Positions 1,130-32,967 of a stretch of DNA of 64,000 nucleotides are shown one piece after another. The DNA comes from Escherichia coli (GTDB lineage: Bacteria; Pseudomonadota; Gammaproteobacteria; Enterobacterales; Enterobacteriaceae): assembly GCF_003334305.1 (NCBI RefSeq), contig NZ_QOWS01000017.1. One strand, given 5' to 3'. Each line of letters starts with the position of its first letter. Position 1 is the first letter of the stretch. The translations under genes were made by a program, and so were the position numbers. The notes beneath the pieces were generated by a model. That model had not been told where the DNA came from. It saw only the letters and a list, made by a program, of their open reading frames with translations, and searched no databases.

Positions 1130-1798
1130 CTATTTCACGGGAATGAACTTATCACCCTGCCAAAGTGCAACCCGTCCTTTGTTATCCGCAGTGTCCACAC
1201 GGGTAAAACGACGCGACTTGCCCGGCATCAGGTAGTAATTCTCTTTACACTCCTTACCGTTGGCGGCTTTCAGGCAAGGGCCGTAGGCGAGGATCCGCAG
1301 CGTCGCATTTCCTGTATTTGTCAGGGAGCCGTTGGCGTACTGAAAGTGGTAGTTCGCCTGGCGAGGGGCGACGACCAGAATGGTGCCGATGCGGGCGGAA
1401 GCAGTGGCCACAGCGCTGCGGTTGGCATTATCGCGCTGCGCATCACTGAGGGCCTGATCAAACCAGACAATGCGGTAGTAGCGCTCTTTTTCATCTGCGG
1501 GTCCCTTATAGAAGAAGCGGATCACTTCGCTGGCTTGGGCGGGTAGCAGCAAGCTGGCGGGAGTGAGTAGCAACTCATCCGGCTTGTCCATTGAGATAAC
1601 CTGCCCGTCGTCAAGCGGTGAAGAGAGCCGTTCGAGACGGATATTGATAAGGCGACCACTGTCGGTACTGTTTTTGATCGTTTTGCTCAGCGTGCTGCTG
1701 TCACTGTTCATAAACGATGATATATCGCCGACATCCAGCGCCTGGGCCGGAGGTATTCCGGAAAACAGCAGAGCGAGAGGCAGAAGGTGCTTTTTCAT
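1130..1798 (-). CDS. ecpB: EcpB (MatC) periplasmic fimbrial chaperone, 222 aa
   Basis: 222-aa ORF with a signal peptide ([20 protein letters not shown]); position between ecpA and ecpC matches the E. coli common pilus operon. Confidence 0.85.
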
Positions 1799-1812
1799 AA
1801 CAATTCCGTCCA

Positions 1813-1841
1813 GGAATAAAGCAGGGGGGCTACCCCTGCTG
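1813..1841 (-). terminator. Hairpin plus T-run between ecpA and ecpB; likely partial (attenuating) intrinsic terminator after the major pilin gene
   Basis: Stem agcagggg (1820-1827) / cccctgct (1833-1840) with a 5-nt loop; on the minus-strand transcript it is followed by UUUAUUCC. Confidence 0.5.
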
Positions 1842-1855
1842 GTACATCAGAGAGA

Positions 1856-2443
1856 TTAACTGGTCCAGGTCGCGTCGAACTGTACGCTAACGTCGCCGCT
1901 CCAGATGCCTTCCGGTAGAGTGCTGTAATCGGTTACTGCGGTGGTACCATTGGTGGTGCCGCTGATGATGGTGAAGGTGAAACCATCCTGTGCGGTGGTA
2001 CGATTGCTGGCATTGTAACCGTTAGCCAGCGGGCTAAGGTTGCCGCCCAGTACGCCGTTGGCGGTATCGATCATCACGGTATCGCCAGTTTTTTCGACTG
2101 CCGCGCCGTTATAATCCACGCCCACATTCAGTGTGGAACCTGAGGTATCCAACTGGGTTAATGTGTTGGTGATAAGACGTGAGGTCAGTTTAAAGGCGGT
2201 AGCCGTTGAGTCACCCTCGATAGCCACGTCAAATAGACCTTTCTGTGAGTTAAAACCTTTAATGCCTTCGGCATACTGGAACGCCAGGCTACCGAGTGGC
2301 GTCACAACCAGCTTACTGGTGGTGTCTTTTTTGGCTGTTGCCGACCAGGTCGCTACAGCCTGAGCTGTTACGTCAGCAGCCTGCGCCACACCCATGCCGG
2401 TAAACACCGTTACCAGAGCTATTGCCAGAACCTTTTTTTTCAT
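1856..2443 (-). CDS. ecpA: EcpA (MatB) major subunit of the E. coli common pilus, 195 aa
   Basis: 195-aa ORF with signal peptide ([22 protein letters not shown]) and Thr/Ser-rich pilin-like body; operon position. Confidence 0.85.
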
Positions 2444-2517
2444 TGCATTTCTTCCCGAGTTGAATTGAGGACGTGATGTCCCAGTGAGTCATTTTTTAAA
2501 ACTAACTTGCCTGGAGT

Positions 2518-3129
<612 letters not shown>

Positions 3130-3878
3130 TTACAGGTGCATTCAGTTTCCTTAGTAAACCGGAAGTAAATAAGATACGTAGTACATATCAATAAAGGTTA
3201 AACGAGATTAAGTTTAATTATTTTCGATTGGGCTTAAATTTATGTTTTTTTCCCGATGAGTGTCAATATGTGAACGGAAAAGGAATTCAATGGTTAAGTC
3301 AATATTTAGAAAAACTGAAAATATTGCTTTTTTGATAAGAAGAAAAAGACATTTGGTTTCATAAGGTTATTGGCAATATAACGTTCAATTCTTACTTGCA
3401 TTTTATATTGGTCAGGAACTTTGCCCTGAAGTGTTAGGAATAGTCTTAATGCGCTGTGTGATGGACTAGTAAAAAAAACAAGTTTTAAGGGTAAGGGATA
3501 GAATATAAAACTATAATGAGCTGTCATTGAAGATGATTTGCCAATCAGTAAGAAATTTTAATGGATTAACATGCCGCACAAAATGGTTATAGGTGTTCAT
3601 TACAATAAGTGATGGAAAATTGAACGGGCGTATGTACGTCATCTGTTCGGTAAGACCCCCAAGAGCCAGATTAAGTGAAGTTAAACGAAGGCTGCCAGCT
3701 GTCACAGGAACGATGGCCTCTTTGTCAGGGCACTGAGTGCAGTTATCTGTGCGCGTTACTCTAACTGGCACTCGAACGTCGGCGATGGGCTTACCGGTGG
3801 ATCAAACTGTTCCTGTGGCGTAAACGTTTTTATGTTAGTACCAACAGATTTACCACATTTATCATCTTAACAGTTTGA

Positions 3879-32395: not shown

Positions 32396-32967
32396 TTGTT
32401 TTTGCATAAAACCGCGCCATGTCTGCATATGGCGCGGGAATCATTGACTCGCTGTAAAAAATTATGCATATATTATATATGATTGTCATGTCATATCCTG
32501 AAATTCCTCTTGTATCACTTCATGACTTTATATTTTATTAATTAACGATTTTATTTTGTATTAGCTGAATGGATTCAGCCCTATAGAGTCATATATTTAT
32601 TAATAAGACGATTCTTATATTTGGATACCTAATAAGAGTTACCACTTTTACCGTCTGTATATTAAATGTATTCCTCCTGTTTTTGTTTATATTTTGAGTT
32701 GATTTGAGTTCCTGGATACATATAATGCGCAGGTATTAGAGACTGGGAGGAATGTAATGATAAAGTTAAGAGTGTTAACTTAAAATAAGTTTTCAGTAGT
32801 AACTTGCTATTTTATTACCCTCTGAACTACATACTCAGATATGTGGTTGCCAATGCTATGCAAAATTTTTGAATTTTTATATGCGATGAACAGTAACCAG
32901 AATGGCATTTAATGCGTTGCTGTTTATGCAATCTTGGTTTTATTTGGATGTATTGCTGGAGATTGTG

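Follow-up and report, generated by a model that had tools for sequence, protein, structure and literature searches.

The Escherichia coli common pilus (ECP), which belongs to the alternate chaperone-usher class, is produced from the ecpRABCDE operon with far more pilin than chaperone, usher or adhesin, and from one promoter. The question raised by this locus is how a single transcription unit can deliver its products in such unequal amounts. The short spacer separating the major pilin gene, ecpA, from the chaperone gene, ecpB, contains a hairpin that would provide a simple and testable account of this imbalance.

A hairpin between the pilin and chaperone genes

The window, by which we mean the whole 64-kb (64,000 nt) stretch of E. 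coli DNA that was analyzed, carries the ecp genes on its minus strand. Gene names follow from the open reading frames (ORFs) and from the RefSeq annotation of the E. coli locus, which is identical over the 501 nt compared and holds no feature at the ecpA-ecpB hairpin; relatives of EcpB bear Pfam PF18649. The elements of the locus, in the order of the coding strand, are as follows.

3060..2518, minus strand: ecpR (matA), regulator gene and first gene of the operon (ORF; RefSeq annotation, 543 nt)
2443..1856, minus strand: ecpA (matB/yagZ), major pilin gene (ORF and RefSeq annotation of the identical locus)
1858..1856, minus strand: ecpA stop codon TAA (ORF)
1841..1855, minus strand: 15 nt separating the hairpin from the ecpA stop codon, UCUCUCUGAUGUACC, poorly conserved
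1840..1833, minus strand: hairpin 5' arm, AGCAGGGG (direct reading, scan and fold)
1832..1828, minus strand: hairpin loop UAGCC, 5 nt (direct reading)
1827..1820, minus strand: hairpin 3' arm, CCCCUGCU (direct reading, scan and fold)
1819..1813, minus strand: interrupted U-rich tract UUAUUCC, presumed transcript-release site (direct reading)
1799..1812, minus strand: ecpB translation-initiation region, UGGACGGAAUUGUU (ortholog motif; putative Shine-Dalgarno assignment)
1798..1130, minus strand: ecpB (matC/yagY), chaperone gene (ORF; Pfam PF18649, EcpB family; RefSeq)
1104 to beyond the window edge, minus strand: ecpC (ORF and RefSeq)

In the E. coli operon, the ecpA-ecpB spacer of 57 nt (1855..1799, minus strand) contains, on the coding strand, a hairpin of 8 perfect pairs, 6 of them G-C, with a folding energy of -14.4 kcal/mol in isolation. 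This hairpin is present in both the minimum free energy (MFE) and the centroid structures, whether the 57-nt spacer or a 131-nt context is folded. It lies 15 nt downstream of the ecpA stop codon, with 21 nt left before the ecpB ATG, making ecpB, according to the gene order given by the ORFs and RefSeq, the first gene that would require read-through past the hairpin. Counted from the G+C core, and so including U1820, the tract behind the stem reads UUUAUUCC, with 5 U in 8 positions and a longest run of 3. A preliminary description of this locus had the coordinates, strand, gene names and 57-nt spacer length all correct when compared with direct reading, the ORFs and RefSeq, and the G+C-rich coding-strand hairpin that it placed in the spacer is recovered by direct reading, by scan, by folding and in ortholog conservation. 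The U-run that it described behind the hairpin holds in part: a U-rich tract does adjoin the stem, but it is interrupted rather than continuous.

A G+C-rich hairpin with an immediate U-rich tract, on the sense strand past a stop codon, has the anatomy of a Rho-independent terminator, and an interrupted U tract is the look of a weak one. The ecp element combines a G+C-rich, short-loop stem-loop with an immediately following U-rich tract, though in sub-optimal form. Judged from these features and from their conservation, the hairpin and tract are in our view probably a sub-optimal (leaky) Rho-independent terminator located inside ecpRABCDE.

Rarity and copy number

The fold of the whole spacer is not significant by shuffling (z = -1.46, with 17 of 200 shuffled sequences folding as well), and a loose terminator pattern is not enriched over 6 kb (7 found versus 5.5 expected from shuffles). 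Under a strict definition, requiring a perfect stem of at least 8 bp with at least 6 G-C pairs, a loop of 3-8 nt and 5 or more T among the 8 positions that follow, both strands of the window together contain 2 sites, versus 0.1 (sd 0.4) in 100 dinucleotide shuffles. The sole such site besides the ecpA-ecpB hairpin is the following.

32412-32437, minus strand: CCGCGCCAU-AUGCAGAC-AUGGCGCGG, then UUUUAUGC (strict scan)

On these counts we regard the hairpin, judged alone, as weakly unusual, and its conservation across genera as decisive.

The hairpin is single-copy. The 101-nt region containing it occurs at a median of 1 place per E. coli genome, a covariance model of the hairpin yields one match in the window, and Rfam returns no match around the hairpin at E <= 1. 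Identity with a REP/BIME-type repeat was rejected on these three grounds. Over the whole window, Rfam returned a single family reaching its gathering score, the unrelated nucleoid-associated noncoding RNA 4 (naRNA4, RF02564; 63848-63924, plus strand, 70.9 bits versus a gathering score of 59.5).

In a simple scan, the ecpA-ecpB hairpin is the sole strong terminator-like hairpin on the coding strand of the ecp operon, and the same kind of scan turned up nothing terminator-like on that strand past ecpE, the last gene, in E. coli 503025 (locus L001, 11834-12147). A scan for terminator-like sites also returned an imperfect 13-pair hairpin followed by TTTTTT on the plus strand at 2057-2089, antisense within ecpA, which may be a chance occurrence.

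Conservation and covariation of the hairpin across enterobacterial genera

Ortholog retrieval by EcpB alignment, in a collection of one genome per species, identified 28 loci, and the analyzed set comprises 24 non-redundant ecpA-ecpB spacers: the window's own and 23 usable orthologs. These spacers come from Escherichia, Klebsiella, Raoultella, Enterobacter, Phytobacter, Pluralibacter, Cedecea, Citrobacter, Pantoea and Kosakonia. All 24 contain a single G+C-rich hairpin of 8-11 bp with folding energies of -14 to -22 kcal/mol, located at the same site between ecpA and ecpB in every ortholog. The distance from the ecpA stop codon to the hairpin is 10-16 nt in all species but one, and that from the end of the hairpin to the ecpB ATG is 16-28 nt, mostly 20-22 nt, over the 24 spacers.

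When stems are anchored on sequence (GCAG...CUGC), the core pairs p1-p7 are standard in 24 of 24 sequences, a count to be read with the proviso that the structure taken for each sequence is its own MFE hairpin, which makes 100% pairing at slide 0 true by construction. The sequence changes within these pairs are informative in several lineages. Double changes replace G-C with A-U at pair 5 in Phytobacter b, at pair 7 in Pluralibacter and at pair 6 in Kosakonia sacchari, where the inner stem also differs, and pair 7 is flipped to C-G in Kosakonia oryzendophytica. One Enterobacteriaceae metagenome-assembled genome (MAG) retains the same hairpin shape with a largely different stem sequence, again through double changes. 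Immediately below the core, pair p0 is A-U in 13 sequences, G-C in 6 and G-U in 5. The loops, of 3-6 nt, have unrelated sequences (UAGCC, GCCA, UUCU, GAAA, AUAU and others) that vary both between and within species.

Column conservation averages 0.956 over the 14 positions of the core stem (0.96 for the 5'-arm core GCAGGGG); among invariant ecpB codons of the same genomes, 32 four-fold degenerate sites average 0.577, and only 3% of these sites reach 0.9. This difference indicates that the stem is under purifying selection as a structure. The stretch leading from the ecpA stop codon to the hairpin shows column conservation of 0.3-0.6 in the 24 orthologs.

The sequence-anchored pair table was used in place of two automatic alignments. 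In the covariance-model alignment, 86.8% of cells are paired, versus 48-69% in slid controls, and 3 pairs show double changes, a count that is an underestimate because the alignment mis-registers the E. coli rows. MAFFT followed by RNAalifold on the raw spacers recovered 3 pairs, with the 5' arm displaced by a single column in many of MAFFT's rows.

These comparisons bear directly on the proposition that the element is a chance palindrome, a REP/MITE remnant or a binding site for a protein at the DNA level. Its palindromic character as DNA, the single TTCCT in its tail and the non-significant shuffling result would all suit such an origin. Against this stand the recurrence of the hairpin at the same place in about ten genera, with loops that vary and stems that compensate, its single-copy status and lack of an Rfam match, and the plus strand, where no T run follows the hairpin. 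The combination of loop variation with compensatory stem changes argues for an RNA structure rather than a sequence-specific DNA site, and we give this origin almost no credence.

Of 5,426 complete E. coli genomes, 4,953 carry the 101-nt region, with identities of 95-100%. Most differences among the alleles inspected are single-base insertions or deletions, located in the loop or in G/C runs, and one allele carries a single stem mismatch.

Three loci outside this pattern were noted. In Klebsiella indica (locus L004, ~2745-3000) the ecpA-ecpB spacer measures 256 nt versus ~59 nt, owing to an insert of ~190 nt with REP-like content that has a diverged copy of the hairpin on either side; of these, the first has a stem extended to ~15 bp without a U tract, and the second is degraded, yet keeps the U tract and the ecpB leader. 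In E. coli OkiPb01676 (locus L030, 3001-4300) an IS421 element (IS4-like) interrupts the hairpin in its 3' arm, after ...UAGCCCCC, which corresponds to window position 1825; ecpB and the genes beyond it are absent, and the next genes are rayT and yafL. In Enterobacter sp. EA-1 (locus L029, ~2400-3560) the ecp locus appears decayed, with a frame-split match to ecpA and a partial, weak match to ecpB, and the hairpin at the homologous place is degraded too.

The U-rich tract and the stability of the pilin transcript

In the 24 orthologs, U makes up 68% and G 1% of the 8 nt following the G+C core, versus 32% U in the upstream spacer and 28% U in the remaining spacer. The frequency of U at successive positions after the core is 0.76, 0.95, 0.81, 0.33, 0.95, 0.95 and 0.52, corresponding to a conserved UUUnUUy. 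The tract is thus kept in imperfect form, with a longest U run of 3 or fewer in 17 of 24 sequences, as a leaky terminator would lead one to expect, and it is weak in 2-3 species. In one MAG, which has a longer spacer (28 nt to the ATG), the U-rich stretch remains attached to the hairpin. The U-rich stretch lies 12-20 nt before the ecpB start, and its conservation could partly reflect translation initiation.

A poor tract follows a strong hairpin in two orthologs, K. spallanzanii (CUGCUUUC) and Phytobacter b (CUGCUUCC), and for this reason the hairpin appears more constrained than the tract, an order of constraint that a pure stability element would also fit. Such an element is the main rival to a leaky terminator, one that we consider unlikely while taking it seriously. 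It would cause no useful termination: an endonuclease would cut downstream and the hairpin would stop 3'-to-5' exonucleases, after the model of malE-malF, with the consequence that ecpA mRNA outlives ecpB-E mRNA. Besides the two orthologs with poor tracts, the first hairpin copy of K. indica, with its ~15 bp and no U tract behind, would suit this role, as would the description of ecpA mRNA as processed and of regulated stability, in the form in which PMC5962669 relays it from Lehti 2013; protective 3' structures within operons are, moreover, common in E. coli (PMC5927463). What a stability element has no need of is a U tract, and the tract is nonetheless maintained across the 24 orthologs, nearly free of G and attached to the hairpin. 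The two roles can coexist, and the leaky terminator that we favor already includes protection: from its structure and position, the hairpin probably also shields ecpA mRNA from 3' exonucleases.

Candidate partial termination within the ecp operon

The ecp operon is reported to have one promoter, 121 bp upstream of ecpR (PMC10038029, as cited there from Martinez-Santos 2012), and all six genes from ecpR to ecpE are transcribed in ECP-expressing strains (PMC5962669). A crude scan of the coding strand from the start of ecpA to ecpB found no promoter-like (sigma-70-like) site. Since, by these reports, the promoter ahead of ecpR also serves the downstream genes, any termination at the hairpin would have to be partial; with ecpB starting 21 nt further on and six genes transcribed from one reported promoter, it is not expected to be complete.

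The proposed sequence of events starts with RNA polymerase initiating upstream of ecpR and transcribing ecpR and ecpA. About 15 nt beyond the ecpA stop codon, a distance that should be enough for a terminating ribosome to leave the structure unmelted, the nascent RNA would form the 8-bp G+C-rich hairpin. At UUUAUUCC some polymerases would release the transcript while others continue into ecpB-ecpC-ecpD-ecpE, so that ecpR-ecpA transcripts would be in excess over ecpB-E transcripts and pilin mRNA would exceed that for chaperone, usher and adhesin. The hairpin would then remain 3'-terminal both on terminated RNAs and on read-through RNAs cut downstream, where it would block 3'-to-5' exonucleases and so contribute to a long-lived, processed ecpA mRNA. 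The proposal in the preliminary description, that partial termination enriches pilin transcripts, is consistent with the points that sequence can address, namely the covarying hairpin, the adjoining interrupted U tract and the lack of a promoter-like site in the crude scan, and also with the reported single promoter, six-gene transcription and processed ecpA mRNA.

Expression data from strain CFT073 show the six ecp genes responding jointly to temperature, with log2 ratios (37/23 C) from ecpR to ecpE of -3.07, -4.78, -4.07, -3.15, -2.82 and -2.79, the response of ecpA being the strongest (PMC12890032 supplement). According to PMC5962669, citing Lehti 2013, the processed ecpA mRNA's stability is modulated, being altered by MatA/EcpR, low temperature, low pH and acetate. 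Both reports would suit a regulated attenuator, in which read-through is switched by EcpR/MatA, by temperature, by a small RNA or by a ribosome at the ecpA stop codon, and in which the pilin-to-assembly ratio shifts with conditions. The graded fold changes, in which ecpA exceeds ecpB-E, fit differential decay equally well, and the structure of the spacer speaks against a switch. The hairpin is present in the MFE and centroid folds in both the 57-nt and 131-nt contexts with no competing antiterminator fold, the 15-nt upstream spacer is poorly conserved, and a hairpin of -14 kcal/mol should stay unmelted at 20-37 C. A weak G-U-rich pairing seen by eye as a candidate antiterminator was rejected, being absent from the computed folds. 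As no alternative antiterminator was found, a passive leaky terminator is indicated rather than a regulated attenuator, for which we see a slim chance. The term "attenuator-like" used in the preliminary description is therefore apt if taken loosely, for a leaky terminator within an operon, and not in the sense of an antiterminator fold or leader-type control, neither of which was found in the spacer.

A related and speculative idea, for which the chances are small, is that the interrupted UUUnUUy represents a tuned ratio of pilin to assembly proteins, and that read-through or 3'-end stability at this point is where EcpR/MatA or low temperature act post-transcriptionally. If true, it would account for the reports that ecpA mRNA stability depends on conditions.

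The leaky terminator would mark the expected 3' end of the reported stable ecpA mRNA, with uses in transcription-unit annotation, in the design of ecp expression constructs and in interpreting polar effects of ecpA mutations. A literature search for ecpA with terminator or term-seq found nothing relevant, and the primary ecp/mat papers may already describe the element; the one use of "terminator" that came up, in PMC3960871, refers to the PapH subunit.

The ecpB leader and the upstream region of ecpA

In the translation-initiation region of ecpB, UGGACGGAAUUGUU, GGA occupies positions -13..-11 and GGAA positions -9..-6, counted from the ATG, within a leader conserved in orthologs as UUyACGGAyUGAA at -18..-6. 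This conservation, together with the tightly kept distance between hairpin and ATG, would be expected if the structure controlled ecpB translation, setting the level of chaperone synthesis through its spacing from the ribosome-binding region or through pairing with the Shine-Dalgarno sequence. A weak outer helix, in which the 5' spacer pairs with the ACGG/GGA region, does occur in the MFE folds of many orthologs. Its putative 5' strand, however, is not conserved and shows no covariation, the main hairpin excludes the Shine-Dalgarno-like GGA, and the 4-bp mini-hairpin that can form around GGA is disrupted in several species; a short spacer alone suffices to explain the constant distance to the ATG. 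We accordingly think translational control of this kind very improbable. The outer helix itself, formed by the pyrimidine-rich post-ecpA spacer and the ecpB Shine-Dalgarno region, would imply translational coupling and was rejected because its 5' strand is unconserved.

The mini-hairpin in the ecpB leader (1799-1819, minus strand) has 4-5 bp and can put GGA in its loop (AUUCC/GGAAU in E. coli, UUCA/UGAA in Klebsiella). One C-G to A-U exchange is seen at its inner pair, alongside the species in which pairing is lost.

At the other end of ecpA, a second small structure can be drawn in the spacer between ecpR and ecpA.

2468..2482, minus strand: tentative small stem-loop GGGAC-AUCAC-GUCCU in the ecpR-ecpA spacer, ~25 nt upstream of the ecpA ATG

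A hairpin of 3-6 bp ending at -21..-27 is found in 18 of 22 ecpA upstream regions (the window's own included), with energies of -2.6 to -7.0 kcal/mol and differing stem sequences (GGGAC/GUCCC, GGGC/GCCU, GGGCG/CGCCU and CGGUC/GGCCG). The E. coli stem-loop is absent from the MFE fold of the ecpR-ecpA spacer. On this weak evidence, it may be the 5' boundary of the stable ecpA mRNA and a counterpart of the papA 5' stem-loop.

Comparison with known systems

The leaky terminator proposed here is ordinary and changes no concept, the solution having long been known from pap and CFA/I fimbriae. The likeness to papBA lies in the gene order, in which a regulator (papB or ecpR) is followed by the major pilin gene (papA or ecpA), a stem-loop and the assembly genes; as in pap, the ecp hairpin sits between the major pilin gene, which it directly follows, and the genes for chaperone and usher. 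The papA mRNA is processed and long-lived, bounded by a 5' stem-loop and an RNase-resistant 3' terminator (PMC5927463), and the pap-like traits of ecp are its 3' hairpin, the reported processed ecpA mRNA and, possibly, the small conserved 5' stem-loop. The two systems differ in that their hairpins have no sequence similarity, the pilus families are unrelated, and the ecp 5' stem-loop is weak and a candidate only.

The resemblance to cfaAB, drawn from its description in the literature, is that of a fimbrial operon in which the mRNA of the major subunit outlasts the rest. In the CFA/I operon the chaperone gene precedes the pilin gene, whereas in ecp the pilin gene precedes the chaperone gene. 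The cfaAB transcript is counted among the classic examples of differential operon decay in pathogenic E. coli (PMC5927463).

With malE-malF, where an intergenic hairpin behind the operon's first, highly expressed gene stabilizes the upstream mRNA segment against 3' exonucleases (PMC5927463), ecp shares an intergenic hairpin behind a highly expressed operon gene; the REP hairpins of malE-malF differ from the ecp hairpin, which is single-copy, has no Rfam match and carries a conserved U tract. Compared with E. coli intrinsic terminators, finally, the ecp element has the same 8-bp G+C-rich stem, short loop and immediate U-rich tract on the sense strand past a stop codon, and differs in the interruption of that tract. 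Lying within an operon, with the next start codon 21 nt away, it would not be expected to act as a full stop.
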